The translations under genes and the position numbers were made by a program. DNA of 62,151 nucleotides from a virus (Duplodnaviria; Caudoviricetes), in IMG/VR virus record IMGVR_UViG_3300049203_000084, positions 1 to 62,151 of that record. One strand, 5' to 3'. Below, in pieces: positions 1 to 62,151 of this stretch (its first letter is position 1; every line of letters begins with the position of its first letter). The notes beneath the pieces are model-generated. The model had not been told where the DNA came from. It saw only the letters and a program-made list of their open reading frames with translations, and did not search any database.

Positions 1-98
1 GGGAGCAACCGAGGGGCCGGGGGTTTTCACCACACACTACAGGAGGAGTAGCACCACACAAATAGGATACAGCATTTTGTTTTTGGCCGGAAATGGCA
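1..98. repeat. Direct repeat, identical to 60356-60453 (contig wrap-around, flank of the capsid cassette)
   Basis: Base-by-base identity; first mismatch at 99 vs 60454. Confidence 0.95.
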
Positions 99-7911: not shown

Positions 7912-7980
7912 TGGGGCTGGCAGGAGTCGAACCTGCAACCTATGGATCATCCACTTGCTCTGCCTTTGAGCTACAGCCCC
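7912..7980 (-). tRNA. tRNA-like gene 3 with collapsed anticodon loop (pseudo-tRNA)
   Basis: GGGGCTG-TA-GCTC-AAAGGCA-GAGC...AGGTT-GCAGG-TTCGACT-CCTGC-CAGCCCC-A; anticodon arm GTGGA-TGA-TCCAT has only a 3-nt loop; no encoded CCA. Confidence 0.75.
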
Positions 7981-8142: not shown

Positions 8143-8238
8143 TTAGGCTGCCACCTTCTCTTCAGTGGCATCCGTGGAGAGCCAGTAGTTGGCCCACATG
8201 GTGGCCACGTCCTGGATTGCCTGCTCTCGTGATGCCAT
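8143..8238 (-). CDS. 31-aa peptide MASREQAIQDVATMWANYWLSTDATEEKVAA heading the ncRNA operon
   Basis: CAGGAGCAAC RBS with AC-rich leader; promoter directly upstream. Confidence 0.6.
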   Translation of the reverse strand: MASREQAIQDVATMWANYWLSTDATEEKVAA

Positions 8239-8276: not shown

Positions 8277-8306
8277 ACAGTAGCACCACAAGAAAATAAA
8301 GGGCAA
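8277..8306 (-). promoter_or_regulatory. SigA-like promoter divergent from the integrase
   Basis: TTGCCC-18 nt-TACTGT with extended TG. Confidence 0.55.
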
Positions 8307-8337
8307 GCCCTCTTGACTGCCAATTTAGAATTGCCCC

Positions 8338-9753
8338 ATGAGCAAGCCACGCGCAGTCGCCTATGTACGGGTCTCCCAAGAGCGGGACGGCATGATTAGC
8401 CCCGAGCTTCAGCTGAACTCGATCCAGACCCACTGTGAGCGCATGGGCTATGACCTCATCGAGACGCTGGAAGACCTCGACCTGTCCGGGCGGTTCTGGA
8501 AGCGTCGGCAGGTCGAGCAGGCCGTCAAGATGATCGAGGACAAGAAGGCTGATGTCCTCGTGGTCTGGAAGATCAGCCGCGTGGCGCGCAACAGGATGGA
8601 CTGGGCCATCGCGGTGGACCGTGTGGAGGGCATCGGCGGGCGGCTGGAGTCCTCGACCGAGCCTCTGGACACCTCCACCTCCTCCGGGCGGTTTGCCCGA
8701 GGGATGCTCGCGGAGCTGGCCGTGTTCGAGTCCGAGCGCATCGGGGACACCTGGAAGGAGACCCACGCGCGCCGCGTGCGCAACGGTCTGCCCCATCACG
8801 GGCTGCCTCGGTTCGGCTACGACTACAGCAAGGAGACGGGATACACCGTCAACGAGGCGTCAGGCCCTGTCCTGCGCGAGATGTACCTGCGTTTCATCCA
8901 AGGGGACAGCCTGAGAAATATCGGCGCTTACGCGGCCTCTGAGGGCTTCACTCCCGAGGGCGGCTGGCGGGACGACGGCGTGCGCCAGATTCTGGATCGC
9001 GGCTTCGGGGCCGGATTCATCCGCAGCAAGGGCGAGTTCCTTCCGGGGGCACACGAGGGGGTCATCTCGGAGGCCGAGTGGAAGGCTTTTCAGGTCAAGC
9101 GCGCTGAGCGTTCCGCGCGCGGGATGGGCGGCGGCTTGAACACCGGCAACGTCTACGTCTACTCAGCCCTCCTGCGCTGCTTCTGCGGTGCCAAGATGGA
9201 CGGCGGGGCCACCAAGCGCAACGGGAAGGTCTACAAGCGGTACACCTGTCGGGACGGGCTCACCAAGGGCTCACACGCCCGCGTGTCCGTCTCCGAGCAG
9301 TACGTCGAGGAGGCCGTCATGGAGTGGATGCACACCGTGGCTGCCGAAATCGACGCGCTGGCCTCTCAGGTCACCAAACCGGCCCCGAATCTCGCCCGGA
9401 AGGCCAACCAGCTGGCTGCCGACATCGCCAAGAACCAGACCCGGCTCGACGCCCTCACCGTGAAGTACCTGGACGATGAAATCGGTGCCGAGGTCTACGC
9501 GCGCCTGAAGGCCAAGCTGGAGGACGAGAAGAAGGCCCTCGAAGCCCGGAAGCGGCTCGTGGAGGTCAATTCAGAGGTCAAGCCAGCCATGATCGTGCCG
9601 CAGCTGCTCGAACGGTGGTCCGATGCCCCTGACCGGCTGAAGCGCGAGGCGCTGGGCAAGCTCCTGGAGAAGATTCAGCTCCACGACTGGGAGAACGGCG
9701 TCAGGACAGGGCGCAGGCGGCTGGAGCCGGTGGAACACGCTTGGGATTCGTAG
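8338..9753 (+). CDS. int: Large serine integrase/recombinase
   Basis: YVRVS catalytic Ser, SRVARN, recombinase domain, LLRCFCG..YTC Zn ribbon, coiled coil; probably leaderless (TAGAAT at 8326-8331). Confidence 0.95.
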   Translation: MSKPRAVAYVRVSQERDGMISPELQLNSIQTHCERMGYDLIETLEDLDLSGRFWKRRQVEQAVKMIEDKKADVLVVWKISRVARNRMDWAIAVDRVEGIGGRLESSTEPLDTSTSSGRFARGMLAELAVFESERIGDTWKETHARRVRNGLPHHGLPRFGYDYSKETGYTVNEASGPVLREMYLRFIQGDSLRNIGAYAASEGFTPEGGWRDDGVRQILDRGFGAGFIRSKGEFLPGAHEGVISEAEWKAFQVKRAERSARGMGGGLNTGNVYVYSALLRCFCGAKMDGGATKRNGKVYKRYTCRDGLTKGSHARVSVSEQYVEEAVMEWMHTVAAEIDALASQVTKPAPNLARKANQLAADIAKNQTRLDALTVKYLDDEIGAEVYARLKAKLEDEKKALEARKRLVEVNSEVKPAMIVPQLLERWSDAPDRLKREALGKLLEKIQLHDWENGVRTGRRRLEPVEHAWDS

Positions 9754-13655: not shown

Positions 13656-14072
13656 CTACTCCGGGGGCATCTCGTTGCGCGCCTCGATCTGCAGAGACTT
13701 TCCCTGGTCCCGCAGCCACATGACTGGGTTGGCGGGGTTGGCCTGCTGCAGGCGCTTGGCTGCCTCGATGAGGGCCTTGGCCTCGACCTGCTTCCGCTCG
13801 ATGCGCCGCCACTGCCGTGCGCCCTCCCGGAGCTTCCTGCGCGCCTCGGCCATCCGCTCGGGGTGGTCCCGGTTGGCCTTCTCCACCTCGGTCAGATCGC
13901 GCTTGTCCTTCAGGAGGTGTGGGGCTGCGGCCACCAGGGCGTTACTGGCCCTGATTCGATACCTGATGCGTGTCTCATCGGACATCAGTTCCCACTTGGC
14001 GGGAGACCCGCGAAACTCGTGCTCGAACTCTGCCCTAGCCGCCGCTTCTACCGCCTCGTCAGAAATTTCCAT
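13656..14072 (-). CDS. Hypothetical protein
   Basis: CACCACACACCTAGTAAGGAGCAC leader; terminator hairpin at about 13605-13636. Confidence 0.75.
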   Translation of the reverse strand: MEISDEAVEAAARAEFEHEFRGSPAKWELMSDETRIRYRIRASNALVAAAPHLLKDKRDLTEVEKANRDHPERMAEARRKLREGARQWRRIERKQVEAKALIEAAKRLQQANPANPVMWLRDQGKSLQIEARNEMPPE

Positions 14073-14429
14073 CGCGTGCTCCTTACTAGGTGTGTGGTGG
14101 TTGCGCCCAGTCTACAGGTGCAAAGGGCGCGAGGGTAGAACCAGGGGAGCGCCTACTGCGAAAAATGCAGTGCCGAAATTTTTGGAATCGGGGAATCGGG
14201 AGAGGGGGCTACTACGGAAATTCGATGCGCCGAAAAAAGTATGTCGAACCCCGCCCCCATCCGGCCTTCGCCAGCTGTCTGAAACTGATTCGGTTGGACT
14301 CTTGACTTCTTCCTGGAACTCTGAAACTGCTTCCCGATCACTGCATACTCCCTCACACACCTGCATGGAAATTCATGAGTACATGGATGCATATGCATGG
14401 GGATACGACACGCCAACGCCCACGAGTGT

Positions 14430-21107: not shown

Positions 21108-21286
21108 CCCGCAAACCATCCTCCCCAAGAAGCCCGCCGTGGACCCCCATACACGGCGGGCTTCGCTTTGCAAGCTGCTTACTGGATTGGTACACCGGGG
21201 CTGAAAAAATAAAGCTTGCACACCCTCGCGGACGAGTGTACTGTCAGATCATAAGCACTCAATCACACAACCAAGGAGCAACCACC

Positions 21287-21523
21287 ATGAAGGTCTACAT
21301 CAACCGCCTCGGACAGGAGCCGCTGGTATTCCATGATGCGGCCCGTTCCAATAACGTCCGCATCGAGACCGAGCAGGGCGTCTTCTCCATCATGGAGAAC
21401 AAGGACGGCTCGCTCAATATCTCGGAGGCCAGCCACATGCATCTCACGCTTCAGCCCAAGGCATCAAATTCCATCCAGCTCGGCGGCGTACTGCCCGAGG
21501 CCTTCAAGATCGGAGGCGAGTAG
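21287..21523 (+). CDS. Hypothetical protein
   Basis: Promoter TTGCAC-17-TACTGT; AAGGAGCAACC RBS. Confidence 0.75.
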   Translation: MKVYINRLGQEPLVFHDAARSNNVRIETEQGVFSIMENKDGSLNISEASHMHLTLQPKASNSIQLGGVLPEAFKIGGE

Positions 21524-23293: not shown

Positions 23294-23431
23294 CTTGGGG
23301 GAGGGCCGGGTGCTTGACGCATCCGGCCCTTTTTCATGTCCGAAAGCTATTGCACCCTCGCCGGTAGGTGTATAGACTCATGTGTAATCCCACAGGGATA
23401 CACACCAACACCACACACTGAGGAGCAACCA

Positions 23432-23809
23432 GTGAGCATCCAGACCCTTTCCCGCAAAGTCCGTGAACTGACCCCCGAGGACGAGCTGATCGGCTCCCTC
23501 ACCAAGGAGCGCGTGAACCTGATGGTCCGCTACGCCGGAGCCTACGCGATGGACAACGGCGAGGCCGCAGGCCGTCACTGGCTGGCCTACGCGCTGGAGA
23601 CCGACATCCCCGAGCACGACTTCAGCCAGCTGTACCACTCCTTCATCCAGGCCCGTGAGACCGAGACCGTGTGCCTGGAGTTCTGGTACGGCGTGGCCAA
23701 CACCACCGAGAACCGCGAGCAGCTGCAGCGTGGCGCTGACATGACCATCGACCACTGCGTCATCCTCCTCGCCAACCGCCTGAGCACGCAGCTGGGGGTG
23801 GCACTGTGA
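23432..23809 (+). CDS. Hypothetical protein
   Basis: Promoter TTGCAC-17-TAGACT; CACCACACACTGAGGAGCAACC leader; GTG start. Confidence 0.75.
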   Translation: MSIQTLSRKVRELTPEDELIGSLTKERVNLMVRYAGAYAMDNGEAAGRHWLAYALETDIPEHDFSQLYHSFIQARETETVCLEFWYGVANTTENREQLQRGADMTIDHCVILLANRLSTQLGVAL

Positions 23810-27546: not shown

Positions 27547-27624
27547 CAGCTTTGCGCGTGGGTCTATAGATTTGTCCTGTAGCACTCCACAAATAAAAAC
27601 CACACACTGCACAAGGAGCACATT

Positions 27625-27765
27625 ATGAGCAAGCGCAACGCACTCGCAGAAGTTATCCGATACTCACGCGGTGAGGACGCCAGCGTGCGGCCCAGTGAGC
27701 AGGACTTCACCACTGCCGATGCCATTCTGGCTGAGGGCTACGCACAGACCACGAACAACAAGTAA
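27625..27765 (+). CDS. Small hypothetical protein
   Basis: Promoter TTGACA-18-TAGATT; leader with AAGGAGCAC. Confidence 0.65.
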   Translation: MSKRNALAEVIRYSRGEDASVRPSEQDFTTADAILAEGYAQTTNNK

Positions 27766-31790: not shown

Positions 31791-31834
31791 TCGGCAGGAG
31801 CAACGCTAATGCGTATCAAAGCAAGTGGGGGAGC

Positions 31835-34054
31835 ATGAGCCAGCAGGACGAGTTCACCACATTTCTCTGGGAAGGGCTTGAAGGCCGAGCGGTCATCGCC
31901 CTCATGGACGAGCGGGGAGCCCCTACCAACCAGCGGTTCTTCAGCTGGCCGGAGCAGAAGGCGCAGCTGCTGGGGTACACCGCCAAGCAGGCCGCGCACG
32001 ACACCTACACCTCACCGTCCCTGTTCCGGGCCACCAACGCCCGCAAGCGCAGCGTCAAGTGCATCCAGGTGGTCCACGCCGACGCCGACACCTTCAACGT
32101 CGAGGACGCCCTGCTGGAGCCGTCCGGCATCGCCACCACCTCCGAGGGCAAGACGCACCTCTACTGGAAGATCACGGACTGCCATGACCCGGCCCTGATC
32201 GAACCGCTCGCGCACTCGGTCTCGGACACCCACGACAAGGCAGAGACCGGGCTGGACAACGGCTGGGCCGTCAACAAGCTCCTCCGTGTGCCGGGAACCT
32301 CAAACACCAAGTATGACGAGCCGTTCCTTGTCACTTTCGAGAACACCGGCCTGACCTACACGCTGGACGAGTTCGCCGCAGCCTACCCGCCCGTCGAGCA
32401 CACCTCCGTGCTGAACGCGGACATGGGCGAACTGCCCAGCTACCCGGCAGCCCTGAAGTCCCTGAAGGCCTCGCCCAAGCTCCTGGAACTGCTGAACAAA
32501 AAAGTCGCGGGCAACGTGGACCGCTCCGACGCGCTGTTCCTGCTGCACAACGAGGTCTTCCGCTGCGGCGGCACCAACGAGGTGGCTTTCGTCATCGCCC
32601 AGAACCACGTCCTGAACAAGTTCAACGAGAAGAACAACTCGGACGAACTGCTCTGGGAGGACGTGCTGCGCGCCCGGTCCAAGTCCGAGATTGGTGAGAC
32701 CGAGGACGAGGAGCTGGAAGGCGTCAACGTCACCGTCGAGCCCAGCGTCAAGGACAAGTCCGTGGACTTCCTCTCGGCCACCGAGAAGGCAGGCCTGCAG
32801 CGCACGTTCGTGGATGACTACATCGCATGGGCTACCTCCAAGACCGACGCCGCGCAGGAATACCACGTCGCCTCGGCCTTCATGATCCTCTCGACCGTGT
32901 TCTCCGACTTCGGCCACGCGGTCCCCAAGTTCGGCAGGTTGCCGTTGAACCTCTGGTTTATGGTGCTCGGGGAGACCACCCGCTCCCGGAAGTCCACCAC
33001 CCGCGCGCTCGGCCTGCAGTTCATCAAGGCCCTCGCCGTGGTGCCCGAGACGGAGGGCGAGGTGGACTTCAACTATGACCTCGGCTCCGACTTCACCCCG
33101 GAAGCCCTGGACAACGAACTGCTGAAGCGTCCCAACCGCTCGGCCCTGCTGCACCGCGATGAGGCGCAGGGCTGGATTCAGGAAATGGACAAGAAGGCCT
33201 ACATGGCTGGGGCCAAGGGCAAGATGACCGAGCTGTACGACGGCCACGTCTCCGGCAAGCTGCGCGCCACGGGCGATAACAACCGGCGCGGCTCGGTGGA
33301 CGTGGCCCTGACCCTGTTTATGATGGGCATCGCCTCGCAGGTGGCTGACTACCTGACGCAGGACGACTTTCGCTCAGGCTTCCTGACCCGCTTCATCTAC
33401 ATCGAGGCCACCCCGCCGCCGCGCTCGGCCCAGTCCGACTGGCTGGAGCAGGCCGACATCCACGAGGTCAAGCAGGGTGACGAGGTGTTCACCGCGATGG
33501 TGAAGCGCATCGAGACCGCCCGGAACCACTGGGCCAGCTTTGCGGACCCCGACGCTCCCACGGTGCCGGTTCCCTGTGTGCCGGAAGCGTGGCTGCGGCT
33601 GAACAAGTTCATCACCGACGTGCTGGACGCAGCCGAGGGCCACCAGCGCCACCAGATCATCGAGGCAGCCAGTGACCGTCTCACCAAGTCCATCCTGAAG
33701 GCAGCCACCCTCCTGGCGATGCTCGACTGCTGCGACAAGGTGCAGGTGCCCCACATGCTCGCGGCCATCAACTTCGCCAGCAGCTGGTTCACCCACATGG
33801 TCAACATGGCCAACCGCATCTCCGAGTCCAGCTGGGCGCGCAGGCAGACGCAGGTTGAGGAGTTCCTGCTGGAGAAGGGCGGCACGGCCAAGTGGGAGGT
33901 GGTCTACCGGCAGTTCCGGCAAGACCTCCGGGCCGATGAGTTCCTGAAGATCATCCAGGCGCTGCAGGACGCAGGCATCATCATGGTCACCCCGTCAGAG
34001 AAGGGCGTCCGGTGGATCACCCGCGTTGACATTGATGAGGAGCTGGCCGCGTAA
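31835..34054 (+). CDS. DNA primase (RepB/AEP-like) with C-terminal P-loop-like (DUF3987-type) domain
   Basis: HADAD, TSEG.THLYW, LLRVPGTSN.K; LGETTRSRKST and RDE. Confidence 0.8.
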   Translation: MSQQDEFTTFLWEGLEGRAVIALMDERGAPTNQRFFSWPEQKAQLLGYTAKQAAHDTYTSPSLFRATNARKRSVKCIQVVHADADTFNVEDALLEPSGIATTSEGKTHLYWKITDCHDPALIEPLAHSVSDTHDKAETGLDNGWAVNKLLRVPGTSNTKYDEPFLVTFENTGLTYTLDEFAAAYPPVEHTSVLNADMGELPSYPAALKSLKASPKLLELLNKKVAGNVDRSDALFLLHNEVFRCGGTNEVAFVIAQNHVLNKFNEKNNSDELLWEDVLRARSKSEIGETEDEELEGVNVTVEPSVKDKSVDFLSATEKAGLQRTFVDDYIAWATSKTDAAQEYHVASAFMILSTVFSDFGHAVPKFGRLPLNLWFMVLGETTRSRKSTTRALGLQFIKALAVVPETEGEVDFNYDLGSDFTPEALDNELLKRPNRSALLHRDEAQGWIQEMDKKAYMAGAKGKMTELYDGHVSGKLRATGDNNRRGSVDVALTLFMMGIASQVADYLTQDDFRSGFLTRFIYIEATPPPRSAQSDWLEQADIHEVKQGDEVFTAMVKRIETARNHWASFADPDAPTVPVPCVPEAWLRLNKFITDVLDAAEGHQRHQIIEAASDRLTKSILKAATLLAMLDCCDKVQVPHMLAAINFASSWFTHMVNMANRISESSWARRQTQVEEFLLEKGGTAKWEVVYRQFRQDLRADEFLKIIQALQDAGIIMVTPSEKGVRWITRVDIDEELAA

Positions 34055-40731: not shown

Positions 40732-40779
40732 GGTTGCTCCCCCTCGTGGCGTGTATAAACCCCACCAGAATAGAGCATC

Positions 40780-55607: not shown

Positions 55608-55724
55608 AATTCACCACCAATTTCCTGTAGATAATGACTACATTCTATCAGTCAGTGTTTTTCCGCTTCTGGGCAAAGAGAAATGCACTAACCCACTCAT
55701 AACGATGGATTAGTGCATTTCGCC

Positions 55725-58582: not shown

Positions 58583-59011
58583 TCAAGCGTTTATCAGGTA
58601 GCGGTACGACTGCACCGCTGAAAGCCTTGTCGGCTGGCCGAGAGATGAAATCTGTCCGACGCCTGCGAAAAAGGCCGGACGCACCTGCCCGCAATGCGTG
58701 GGGGTGAACCCCAGCAGCTTCCCGAGCGCAATTCCATTCAGCTGGCGGGCCGCGTCATCGTCACCGGCAATGGCGTGTGTGGAGACACCCTGGAGGAAGG
58801 AATCGTCCTGCGCTCCTGTAATTCCGTTGACGCCCTTGGACGGTTCGGTGAGCCCTGCAAAGTTCACCACGAGGTGCGGCTTGACCTTGCCGGTGGGCGT
58901 CATTGGGATCGCCTCTCCGTCCGGCACACTGCCCTCGAACACCTCGACGTGGGGGATGGTGCGCAGGTGCGCGATGATTTCCTGCTGGGAGGGGTATGGG
59001 TTGACTGTCAT
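58583..59011 (-). CDS. Tail terminator-like protein
   Basis: Synteny and size; VFEGSVP..KPHLVV. Confidence 0.6.
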   Translation of the reverse strand: MTVNPYPSQQEIIAHLRTIPHVEVFEGSVPDGEAIPMTPTGKVKPHLVVNFAGLTEPSKGVNGITGAQDDSFLQGVSTHAIAGDDDAARQLNGIALGKLLGFTPTHCGQVRPAFFAGVGQISSLGQPTRLSAVQSYRYLINA

Positions 59012-59424: not shown

Positions 59425-59876
59425 TACGCACCGTCCTGCTTGGAGTTGAAGCCGCAGTAGAGCGTGTGTGCCCAGTCCTCGGACGCACCGGCCCAGCCGC
59501 GCACGAACAGCTTCTCGCCCTCCATCATCGGATTCGAGCACACGAGCACGGTGAGCAGATCGTTGGACTGCCAGCGCAGGTTCTCCGGGGTGGCCTCGTT
59601 GAGTTCCGGTGCCAGCGGCAGCATCGCCTGCATCATCTGGTTGTCCGCCGAGTCGGAGACGAACTCCCGGCGCGTGGGGCGGGCGATGCGGTCCAGGTCA
59701 GCAGGCCCGAGGTACAGCAGTTCGGTCTCCCCGCCGTCGTAGTCGCCCGTGGCGGAGTTCCACTTGCCCTCGGAGATGACGCGCTCGACCTTCACGCGGG
59801 CTGTCATAGCTGTGGAGAGAACCGGCGCGTGGAAGGCTGCCCAGCCGTCAGGGAAGACCGAGGTGCCTAGTGCCAC
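59424..59876 (-). CDS. Head-to-tail stopper
   Basis: Synteny; WNSATG.Y..LYLGPA. Confidence 0.6.
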   Translation of the reverse strand: MALGTSVFPDGWAAFHAPVLSTAMTARVKVERVISEGKWNSATGDYDGGETELLYLGPADLDRIARPTRREFVSDSADNQMMQAMLPLAPELNEATPENLRWQSNDLLTVLVCSNPMMEGEKLFVRGWAGASEDWAHTLYCGFNSKQDGA

Positions 59877-60301
59877 AGCACACCACCGTTGTTGGCCTCG
59901 AAGACATCGAAGGGCGTCACGGGGTCAGCGAAGTCCACGATGGCGAACGTCCCATCGGCAGCCTCGCCGGATTCCTCGACGGCCTTGCCGCGCGCCCGGT
60001 AGTCCTGCGCGAGCAGCCGGAGGGCGTTGGCCACAGCGGGGCCGTCCGTCTGCAGATTCTCCTTGCGGATTTTCTTGGAGACCAGCGCATCATTTGCCGC
60101 AAATGCGGTCAGCGCGTCGGCTGCGGCGAAATAGATATTGTCCCCGGCAATTGTCAGGAAGCCGCCGAGAAATTCGTCCGAGTAGTAAAACTCGGGCTCG
60201 GCAGCGGGGTTTAGCGGATCGTTCCGCAGCTGTGAGTCGGAAATGAGCAGGCGCAATTGCCCGACCGGGGTATTGGGGTCCAGGGGATTCACGTCAGCCA
60301 T
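59867..60301 (-). CDS. Head-to-tail adaptor
   Basis: TPVGQLRLLISD..YSDE..AAADAL; probably leaderless (TAGAAT at 60308-60313). Confidence 0.75.
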   Translation of the reverse strand: MADVNPLDPNTPVGQLRLLISDSQLRNDPLNPAAEPEFYYSDEFLGGFLTIAGDNIYFAAADALTAFAANDALVSKKIRKENLQTDGPAVANALRLLAQDYRARGKAVEESGEAADGTFAIVDFADPVTPFDVFEANNGGVLWH

Positions 60302-60330
60302 ATGTCAATTCTACCGGAGCGGCTTTTTGA

Positions 60331-60413
60331 CAAAGAAAACCCCCGGCGATTCTCGGGGAGCAACCGAGGGGCCGGGGGTTTTCACCACACACTACAGGAG
60401 GAGTAGCACCACA
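60331..60413 (-). ncRNA. Candidate ~83-nt sRNA with anti-Shine-Dalgarno loops
   Basis: Own -10-like TATCCT (60419-60424) after the MCP terminator; hairpin CTAC-TCCTCCT-GTAG; GTGTGTGGTG tract; terminator with TTGCTCC loop and U-tail. Confidence 0.6.
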
Positions 60414-60453
60414 CAAATAGGATACAGCATTTTGTTTTTGGCCGGAAATGGCA

Positions 60454-60488
60454 GAAGCCCCTCCGGGAAATTCACCGGAGGGGCTTCT
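60454..60488 (-). terminator. Hairpin after MCP allele B
   Basis: AGAAGCCCCTCCGG...CCGGAGGGGCTTCT. Confidence 0.65.
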
Positions 60489-60497
60489 TAGTTCAGA

Positions 60498-61658
60498 CTA
60501 CGGAGTGTTGAACTGCGACGGGGCCGCAGCGCCGTTGCCCTTGGAAGCCAGGAGGCCCTGACCGTTGATGAACGCACCGGCCACAACGTGGCGCACCCGG
60601 TACTCGGCGGTGTCGTTCAGCAGCGAGCCGGAGGTTCCGGGAACCTGACCGCCACCGAGGTAGTTGCCGCCGCCACCGGAGATGCGCAGCTCGGGAGCCT
60701 CGTGGTTCTGCAGGAAGGCCACACCCAGTGCGTCACGGGTGCCGTCCTTGCCGCCGTCCGGCACCAAGTACCAAGTGGTGTCGGCGGTTGCGGACTGGTC
60801 GATGTCGGTCAGCCAGTCGGTTGCCGTCAGGGCCACGTCGGAGTTGGAGGTTCCGGCCTTGACCTTGCGGGTGCCCTCGGTGACTTCCAGCTCGCGGATG
60901 GAGAGGATGTACTCGGCCTGATCCTTCATGGCGGTGGGGACCAGCAGGCGGAACTTGGGAACCGTCACGCGGCGTCCATTGACCTTGCGGTTGCGAATGG
61001 CCTTCTTGGCGAGAACCAGCGCGTCGAGGGACAGCGGGTGCTCGGCGGTGAACAGGCTGTCGCCGGTGTTCAGGTTGCCGTGGTCAGCGTGGAAGGTTAC
61101 CGCGTTGGGGCCAGCGGTGCCTGCCAGGATGCCGTAGGCTTCCGTGTCCTCGGTGTTGGCCGCGAGGTCGAGCATCTTGCCGGGGATGGACTTGATGAGC
61201 TGCCACTCATCGTTGATGACCATTTCCCAGGTGAACGGGAACCGCGCACCTTCCTTGTAGAGCATGATGCCCGACGCGGACGTGGTGAAGCCGAAGGAGG
61301 GGTACTCCGTGCCTTCCGGGATACGCGGGAGGGAGTTCGGCTTGGTCTTGGCCCCGCCGTTCTCGTCCAGGTTCACGTCATCGTCAAGCGTCAGCTCGCG
61401 GAACCACTGCGGCTTGAAGTCGTTGAACTTCAGCTCGACAGCGAAGTCACGCCAGGACTGCGTGCGCTCCTTGTACTGAGCCTGCAGCTTCTGGGAGACA
61501 CCGATGGCGAAAGCGCCCGCGAGGTCAGAGCTGGAGAAGGATTCGGTGATGTACGCAGTGCCATCAACGAGGGCCTTGATGCGGCCCTGTGCAGCGCGGT
61601 CACCTTCAAGTGCGAAGCCGAGAATCTTTCCGGCTTCCTCGATGGTCTGGATAGTCAT
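60498..61658 (-). CDS. Major capsid protein, allele B
   Basis: 386 aa, collinear with 148-1308; 45 of the first 60 aa identical. Confidence 0.88.
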   Translation of the reverse strand: MTIQTIEEAGKILGFALEGDRAAQGRIKALVDGTAYITESFSSSDLAGAFAIGVSQKLQAQYKERTQSWRDFAVELKFNDFKPQWFRELTLDDDVNLDENGGAKTKPNSLPRIPEGTEYPSFGFTTSASGIMLYKEGARFPFTWEMVINDEWQLIKSIPGKMLDLAANTEDTEAYGILAGTAGPNAVTFHADHGNLNTGDSLFTAEHPLSLDALVLAKKAIRNRKVNGRRVTVPKFRLLVPTAMKDQAEYILSIRELEVTEGTRKVKAGTSNSDVALTATDWLTDIDQSATADTTWYLVPDGGKDGTRDALGVAFLQNHEAPELRISGGGGNYLGGGQVPGTSGSLLNDTAEYRVRHVVAGAFINGQGLLASKGNGAAAPSQFNTP

Positions 61659-61669
61659 GTCAGCCTTCC

Positions 61670-62092
61670 TTATGCTGCGTCAGCGACAATGCCGCCGTTG
61701 AGGATTTTGACCAGCACATCGGCTACCGGGGCGGTCTTGGAACGGAGGGCCACACCGAACAGCTTGGTGCCTGCTGCGGCGGTGGAGGTCAGGGTGTTGT
61801 CGGACACCTTGATGTAGACCGGAGCGCCTACCGTGGTTGCGCCCGTGACCGGCAGGTTCGCAGAACCCTTCAGTGCGCAGGAGGCGAAACCGGGCTCGTT
61901 GCTGGATGCCGAGCCGGAAGGCTGGGTCAGGGTTGCACCGGCACCAAGGGTGATGGTCTTACCCACGGACCCTTCATCGGTGACAGTGACTACGTTGAGG
62001 ACACCAATGCGCAGAGCTTTGCCCGCGAGTGTGCCGGAGGGTACGGGAAGGGACAGGTAATCCGCTTCCTTGAAGACAAAGTTCTTTGCCAT
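61670..62092 (-). CDS. Capsid decoration protein, allele B
   Basis: 140 aa, collinear with 1320-1742. Confidence 0.75.
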   Translation of the reverse strand: MAKNFVFKEADYLSLPVPSGTLAGKALRIGVLNVVTVTDEGSVGKTITLGAGATLTQPSGSASSNEPGFASCALKGSANLPVTGATTVGAPVYIKVSDNTLTSTAAAGTKLFGVALRSKTAPVADVLVKILNGGIVADAA

Positions 62093-62151
62093 TGTTCAGC
62101 CTTTCATAGCCGCTGCTGCTATTTATCAGTATACGGCATTGGAAATAAACA

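Follow-up and report, generated by a model that had tools for sequence, protein, structure and literature searches.

The gap between the major capsid protein gene and the head-tail adaptor gene of this phage holds a small conserved unit. Comparison of related viral sequences shows that the structure of the unit co-varies, and that its terminator loop and the Shine-Dalgarno (SD) sequences of the phage are complementary in a way that co-varies between phage groups. The best reading, to which we give a probability of about 0.5, is that the unit encodes a trans-acting RNA directed against the ribosome-binding sites (RBS) of the phage's own, mainly non-structural mRNAs. Accumulation of the RNA, its pairing in vivo, repression as the effect, and the timing, we infer.

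The element and its neighbourhood

The window, the whole stretch of DNA that was analysed, is an IMG/VR viral record of 62,151 bp. Its first ~1.8 kb (1-1806) repeats the last ~1.8 kb (60356-62151) with ~90% identity, and perfectly identical blocks are found at both edges of the overlap (1-98 equals 60356-60453). An overlap at this level of identity implies that the assembler joined two strain variants of a single genome, permuted or circular, and that the true genome is ~60.35 kb. The late structural genes are on the minus strand, while the non-structural genes, at ~8-39 kb, are found on both strands. Among cultured phages the closest are those of the Amigo group, which infect Arthrobacter; their DNA is 72.6% identical in a part of the capsid gene. 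No prophage was found when the adaptor alignment was searched against 185,579 species genomes (one per species). A single tRNA gene (7912-7980, minus strand) is located just downstream of a small ORF beside the integrase gene. The features of the locus are the following.

60498-61658, minus strand: major capsid protein gene, the upstream neighbour (ORF of 386 aa; its DNA matches Arthrobacter phage genes annotated as major capsid protein)
60453-60488, minus strand: first hairpin, terminator-like with a weak U tail, 3' of the capsid gene (fold; self-inverted match; a hairpin at the same place in relatives)
60419-60424, minus strand: -10 box TATCCT, candidate promoter of the small RNA (TAnnnT kept in type-A relatives)
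60332-60412, minus strand: predicted small RNA of ~81 nt (5' end inferred from the -10 spacing; 3' end at the U tract)
60392-60406, minus strand: 5' hairpin CUAC-UCCUCCU-GUAG, predicted by folding, with a canonical anti-SD loop at 60396-60402
60335-60383, minus strand: intrinsic terminator hairpin, inner stem CUCGG/CCGAG, with the U tract continuing to 60332
60357-60363, minus strand: apical loop of the terminator, UUGCUCC, complement of GGAGCAA (YUGCUCC invariant in 16/16 relatives)
60308-60313, minus strand: -10 box TAGAAT, 6 nt 5' of the adaptor ATG (same arrangement in relatives, Amigo and Molivia)
59867-60301, minus strand: head-tail adaptor-like gene, the downstream neighbour (ORF; alignment of relatives; homologues in cultured phages)
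1-98, minus strand: truncated second copy of the element, identical to 60356-60453 (covariance model match at 1-54)

The anatomy of the minus strand is as the first-pass annotation described it, TATCCT, CUAC-UCCUCCU-GUAG and the terminator CUCGG/UUGCUCC/CCGAG all being found where it had placed them, and the fold of the 5' hairpin confirms a second loop displaying the anti-SD sequence UCCUCCU. The small hairpin CUAC-UCCUCCU-GUAG is part of a GU-rich stretch between TATCCT and the long terminator. An 86-nt stretch of the element folds at -37.3 kcal/mol (z = -5.1), and 0/200 shuffles were as stable. The truncated copy had been used as an argument for conservation: the identity of positions 1-69 with the element is real, and even reaches 1-98, but as the two copies are joined variants of one genome it is not independent evidence of selection.

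A scan of the window for consensus sigma-70 promoters did not call TATCCT at 60424-60419, and the argument for a separate promoter comes from the relatives. All 15 type-A sequences that include the upstream region (1 of the 16 is truncated) have a TAnnnT box, in five different hexamers, 6-8 nt before the conserved 5' motif and often preceded by TGn. The box is also found in the other types of the unit and in Amigo and Molivia. On this comparative ground, the small RNA probably has a promoter of its own. The 5' motif itself, (U)GCUCCU...GUGUGG, which contains CUCC, is kept in 16 distinct type-A sequences. In one relative (L020) the 5' hairpin has CUGC/GCAG, a compensatory change, while in other relatives UGCUCCUGUG, the equivalent of the 5' hairpin motif, is single-stranded at the 5' end.

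The 16 type-A relatives all have a terminator hairpin of 15-21 bp, with widely different stems around an unchanged loop, YUGCUCC. In a MAFFT alignment 7/9 pairs showed compensatory changes and 95% of the cells were paired, a score that 0/500 shuffles reached. A U tract follows the second hairpin in 16/16, as in a canonical terminator, and an antitermination RNA of the put/nut type was discarded for this reason. A covariance model (R1) found the 16 relatives and the truncated copy at the start of the window, and nothing else convincing in 219 kb. Thus, the self-contained transcription unit with promoter and terminator that had been proposed for the minus strand is borne out by conservation, and the comparative evidence supports that the element is a small-RNA gene.

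The same hairpins would show SD-like loops if they were read from the plus strand, and the terminator of the window is nearly symmetrical. It is therefore conceivable that the functional RNA is that of the plus strand, with GGAGCAA and AGGAGGAG in hairpin loops acting as SD mimics that titrate ribosomes or an SD-binding factor. This is very improbable, because the -10 box of the relatives, and the T tract that follows their stems, are found on the late-gene strand only, and because a plus-strand RNA would be antisense to the adaptor coding region and no conserved promoter was seen for it.

The unit was found in 11/12 capsid-anchored viral loci that reach the region; the remaining one (L016) has no detectable unit, and another gene in its place. 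Among 33 adaptor-anchored metagenome loci inspected by eye, a set that shares some contigs with the capsid-anchored one, 24 have the unit (11 of type A, 8 of type C, 5 of type D), 3 are truncated, and 6 are without unit or unclear. An extra small ORF between the capsid gene and the unit in L006, L011 and L012/L014 suggests that the unit travels with the adaptor side.

More distant phages, with adaptor proteins 40-51% identical, have an analogous unit of different sequence at the same place: an extended -10 box, an RNA of 70-170 nt, a CUCC-loop terminator (ACUCUCCA, ACCUCUCUCC, ACUGCUCCC), followed by an adaptor gene that is leaderless. In Amigo and Molivia, cultured lytic phages of Arthrobacter, it is found in the gaps of 263 and 236 bp that follow the capsid genes. 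The terminator stems of the two co-vary, and the loop UUCCUCC is conserved; the predicted RNA, of ~165 nt, is on the late-gene strand, from ~7 nt 3' of TGTGCTAAGCT to the UUCCUCC-loop terminator. In the available text of the paper on Amigo-group phages (PMC5513430) no such feature is mentioned, and the terms 'intergenic' and 'small RNA' are absent. The cultured phages TripleJ, BIM BV-113, LuckyBarnes and Yappy have adaptor homologues and no such unit.

Rfam covariance models, among them that of 6C, which we take to be RF01066, gave no match at gathering thresholds in the window and eight related loci; the best E-values were ≥0.15, all to unrelated families. An exact 30-nt pattern of the element gave 0 matches in viral contigs. 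Four metatranscriptome runs, of five with small shares, contained pieces of the capsid genes of relatives only and nothing at 60120-60439, and are uninformative.

The placement of TAGAAT 6 nt before the ATG makes it likely that the adaptor mRNA is leaderless. The serine integrase gene likewise has TAGAAT 6 nt before its ATG (8326-8340, plus strand; the corresponding adaptor site is 60299-60313, minus strand) and is likely leaderless as well. At least seven more TGnTAnnnT boxes were observed in the structural block of the window, at 55647, 50089, 43867, 57247, 58557, 2888 and 62133.

It had been suggested that the RNA confers immunity, as an antisense RNA silencing lytic genes in the lysogen in the manner of P1 c4 and P4 CI. 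The window phage does have a large serine recombinase (8338-9753, with Resolvase, Recombinase and Zn_ribbon_recom domains), and a Pfam search with 20 window proteins revealed no repressor or other DNA-binding family; only 3/20 matched any family, namely the serine recombinase, DUF6551 and dNMP kinase. On the other hand, the unit is present in five relatives without serine and tyrosine integrases (G001, G005, G006, G007 and G008, four of them estimated to be 100% complete and one 94%), and in cluster AQ phages, which have no annotated integrase and are described as lytic in the available text of PMC5513430. It is furthermore located inside the late structural block and not in an immunity region. 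As integrase-less and lytic relatives carry the unit, the immunity role is not supported, and we regard it as scarcely probable.

Terminator loop and ribosome-binding sites of the phage

The commonest SD form in the window is AGGAGCA(A/C), usually within an AC-rich leader, rather than GGAGG. Two classes of RBS were observed, AGGAGCA(A/C) mostly at non-structural genes, and GAAAGG(C) or AAGGAAGG at the capsid, scaffold and several other genes. With gene starts from a crude in-house caller that made errors, GGAGCA was the most frequent SD-positioned GGAGNN in the window (10/46), G001 (8/34), G002 (6/33) and G009 (10/43), whose loops carry UGCUCC, and GGAGAG was the most frequent in G007 (9/29), whose loop contains CUCUCC. 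In Amigo, where annotated start regions were used (68 CDS, 38 GGAG-bearing sites), GGAGGA occurs 13 times and GGAGCA 0 times, and the loop is UUCCUCC. With a looser filter, 19 SD-positioned GGAGCA sites are found in the window.

A 6-mer complementary to the loop is present in 13/83 start regions of the window, as compared to 2.3 in shuffles. A k-mer matrix with whole small RNAs was confounded by RNA length and multiple motifs, and a matrix of loops only against start regions was used instead. In this matrix the own loop class scores highest in 7/7 complete genomes with an anti-SD-like terminator loop, although the phage lineages compared are few and related: 13/83 start regions in the window against 2-5 for the other classes, 13/82 against 1-3 in G001, 12/68 against 1-2 in G009, and 11/59 against 1-4 in Amigo, with 6/65 in G005, 5/77 in G006 and 12/84 in G007, each the highest of its genome. 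The incomplete genomes G002-G004 showed no loop preference in the matrix, and the terminator loop of G008 is not anti-SD-like. Any loop with CUCC will match SD sequences, so that part of the signal is generic. The flavour-specific covariation of loop and SD is the strongest argument that the loop may read the phage's own RBS.

It had been claimed that the terminator loop pairs with the RBS of several genes of the phage. The complementarity is found at many of its genes, most of them non-structural, and the match of loop and SD class co-varies across the phage groups. The loop-complementary sites are not significantly concentrated in non-structural as compared to structural genes in the window (10/55 versus 3/28, p = 0.53), nor in Amigo (9/33 versus 2/26, p = 0.09). 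The RBS complement that had been quoted, GGAGCAACC, is present at 21275 and 23422, and also at 40732 (minus strand), a site that had been overlooked. With at most one mismatch it has 34 matches in the window where 24.1 are expected, a number reached by 4/100 shuffles, so that as a word it does not clearly exceed chance.

A quite different explanation is that the unit is purely cis-acting punctuation. The capsid gene, which is highly expressed, would then be insulated by two terminators, and transcription of the tail genes would restart at internal promoters; the RNA would be no more than a by-product, or would act as an attenuator, with read-through determining the level of the tail genes, and the loop would serve termination or a protein instead of mRNAs. 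The unit indeed always has the terminator of the capsid side on one flank and the promoter of the adaptor gene on the other, and there are many extended -10 promoters in the late region. The loci L111 (1300-1500) and L115 (1330-1500), from two more distant phages, also fit such a role: a U tract is missing from their homologous element, whose loops are ACUGCUCC and CCGCUCC, an SD (GAGAGGA) precedes the adaptor gene, and the element is its 5' UTR and not a separate unit, an arrangement which hints at a cis-acting ancestor. Terminator loops are, however, not normally constrained in sequence, yet this one is invariant in 16/16 while the stems change, and its class tracks the SD flavour of the phage across groups. 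Moreover, read-through transcripts would be of no use to an adaptor gene that is leaderless. We therefore consider this explanation unlikely.

The C/U-rich loops could also be directed mainly at host mRNAs, whose G-rich RBS would be covered in a shut-off or reprogramming of the host similar to that of 6C or RsaE-type RNAs. In the minimum-energy folds of 13 RNAs, CUCC or CCUCC is exposed in the loops of all except the G008 terminator loop, and the 5' hairpin of the window shows the canonical UCCUCCU. But the conserved motif of type A is GCUCC and not the canonical CCUCC, relatives without the 5' hairpin have only GCUCC, and GCUCC matches the phage's own unusual GGAGCA flavour. Host mRNAs as the main targets are thus quite unlikely, and we favour the phage's own mRNAs as the probable targets.

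Pairing of the 5' domain and proposed action

The first-pass annotation also proposed that the 5' part of the RNA pairs with a leader shared by several genes. The leader sites that it quoted exist, CACCACACACT at 23409, ACCACACACTGCA at 27599 and CACCACACAC at 14090 (minus strand). A shared leader defined by CACCACACAC did not hold up, as the word is not enriched in the window: with at most one mismatch there are 9 matches against 6.3 expected, 16/100 shuffles reach 9, and 4 of the 9 belong to the element itself in its two copies. When the 5' domain was scanned as a duplex against the whole genome, the leaders that had been claimed were no outliers, ranking 8th and 13th. Simple duplex energies were marginal, the minimum of the window being reached by 21/200 shuffles and the mean of the five best by 10/200.

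A structure-aware measure, i.e. the cofold energy minus the two separate fold energies, to which loop kissing is out of reach, showed an excess of strongly pairing start regions. At -17 kcal/mol or lower we found 12/84 start regions of the window as compared to 15/672 shuffled regions (p = 4e-7); when the 5' domain of the RNA was shuffled, each of twelve such RNAs reached this level at 0-5 regions. The excess is also seen in G001 (13 against 2.2 expected) and G003 (9 against 1.4), that is in 3/11 genomes including the window; it is marginal in G008 (p = 0.01) and absent in 7 of the 10 genomes other than the window. The proposed pairing by several seeds was accordingly better than shuffled controls by the structure-aware measure in three genomes, but it was marginal as simple duplexes and is not seen in most other genomes. 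This implies that the extended pairing may be a property of some type-A phages, while the loop/SD match is family-wide.

The best start regions belong to the genes starting at 27625, 22249, 21287, 24992, 23432, 28266 and 14072, and 10 of the 12 best regions are in the non-structural part of the genome. The predicted duplex in the best regions is co-linear over leader, SD and spacer. When the own small RNA was set against a foreign one on a single orthologous target, the test succeeded for the window and G001 and failed for G003. Predicted target start regions are the following.

27588-27627, plus strand: best predicted target, start of a 46-aa gene with ATG at 27625, binding -28.7 kcal/mol
21250-21289, plus strand: predicted target with GGAGCAACC, ATG at 21287, -20.8 kcal/mol
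23395-23434, plus strand: predicted target with CACCACACACT and GGAGCAACC, GTG at 23432, -19.8 kcal/mol
14070-14109, minus strand: predicted target, ATG at 14072, -19.4 kcal/mol

Two other leaders were observed. TTGTGGTGCTACT (8280-8292, minus strand) repeats the sequence with which the small RNA begins, and opens the leader of a 31-codon ORF (ATG at 8238, SD GGAGCAACG) oriented divergently to the integrase gene; the exact 10-mer shared by the small-RNA start and this leader occurs at only these two unique places. GGAGCAACG is also found 5' of a 9-codon upstream ORF (31809-31838, plus strand; site 31797-31838), the stop codon of which overlaps the ATG (31835) of a 739-aa gene as ATGA, and this suggests translational coupling.

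The mode of action that we propose is as follows. A small non-coding RNA of ~81 nt would be transcribed on the late-gene strand from its own -10-type promoter and end at its own intrinsic terminator. Its exposed parts would be a pyrimidine-rich 5' domain (the UCCUCCU hairpin here, UGCUCCUGUGGUUGUGUG in relatives) and the 7-nt loop UUGCUCC, and these may pair in trans with the initiation regions of the phage's own, mostly non-structural mRNAs, where AGGAGCA(A/C) is set in AC-rich leaders. The SD would be masked by the pairing, with less translation of perhaps a dozen genes as the result, while genes whose mRNA is leaderless, the adaptor gene among them, and late genes with GAAAGG or AAGGAAGG sites would escape. 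A reading of the phage's own RBS flavour by the loop would also explain the combination of leaderless genes with two SD classes. To act through a 7-nt loop on a dozen mRNAs or more, the RNA would have to be very abundant. The candidate is well delimited, and it has cultured, non-pathogenic representatives in Amigo and Molivia, which grow on Arthrobacter sp. ATCC 21022.

Comparison with known systems

Small RNAs with C-rich loops which occlude ribosome-binding sites are known from bacteria, e.g. the 6C RNA of Actinobacteria and RsaE/RoxS of Firmicutes. The RNA proposed here resembles these in being short and terminator-ended, with C/U-rich loop motifs complementary to the G-rich SD of several mRNAs. 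Unlike them, it is encoded by a phage, always at the same position between the genes for capsid and adaptor, and its GCUCC motif is matched to the phage's own SD flavour; neither in sequence nor in structure does it match an Rfam family, 6C included. Phage T4 shuts down its own early mRNAs at the RBS by means of proteins, the endoribonuclease RegB, which cuts within GGAG, and the translational repressor RegA. The action on the RBS of the phage's own gene set would be the same, but here an RNA is proposed to act, and the proposal does not involve cleavage. If the loop reads the RBS flavour of its own phage, it would be an RNA counterpart of RegA/RegB.

Regulatory RNAs are almost undescribed in phages of Actinobacteria, and our literature search found no paper on a small RNA of this kind in actinobacterial phages; nor are these phages mentioned in the available text of a 2025 review of phage small RNAs (PMC12197685). 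According to the sections of that review on c4 of P1/P7, CI of P4, and OOP and aQ of lambda, these phage RNAs pair with genes of their own phage at one or few loci, in cis or in an immunity circuit. The present RNA is likewise phage-encoded with its own genes as proposed pairing targets; in contrast to those RNAs, the unit is found in lytic, integrase-less phages and the candidate targets are many. A terminator loop with a regulatory function has precedents in the E. coli small RNAs SdsR, RseX and ArrS acting on fepA, whose loops, in the available text of PMC11979758, probably act without base-pairing. The regulatory role placed in the loop of an intrinsic terminator is common to these and the present RNA, whereas exact complementarity to the SD is a feature of the latter.

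The element most resembles, by analogy, the unsolved start-associated sequences (SAS) of Cluster K mycobacteriophages and Cluster EF Microbacterium phages. In the available texts (PMC3203893, PMC7302621), the SAS are phage-specific, over-conserved RBS motifs at many non-structural genes, with conservation beyond the pairing to 16S, and the authors leave open whether the reader is an RNA or a protein; in K1 phages, one reversed SAS copy is located away from any gene start. A reversed copy that is not at a gene start is found here too, in the terminator loop. Compared to the SAS, the present motif is shorter (~7-9 nt, AGGAGCA[AC]) and less uniform, and its reversed copy is the loop of a defined small transcription unit. 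Our literature search found no paper linking SAS-type motifs to an RNA.

The reversed SAS of Cluster K1 (Anaya 59870-59882, Adephagia 58682-58694) is located in the loop at the tip of a predicted hairpin, GCGCG-GCCUCCUAUCCC-CGCGC. The hairpin is in a conserved non-coding gap of ~385-430 bp, between gp96 and gp97 in Anaya and between gp92 and gp93 in Adephagia, 3' of a TAGACT box (L102, Anaya JF704106, 59682-60066; L145, Adephagia JF704105, 58447-58878), in two phages too close to each other to show covariation. By analogy, its arrangement is one that appears to follow the same logic as the loop described here. If the loop reads the RBS flavour of its own phage, it would be a testable candidate for the kind of factor that was proposed in 2011 in connection with the SAS. 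We put forward, tentatively, the more general possibility that actinobacterial phages use a private translation code, in which sets of genes share a phage-specific RBS variant, the 'start associated sequences', and the exact complement of this variant in the hairpin loop of a phage RNA would turn all genes of the set on or off at once. In that case the Cluster K mycobacteriophages would follow this logic as well.
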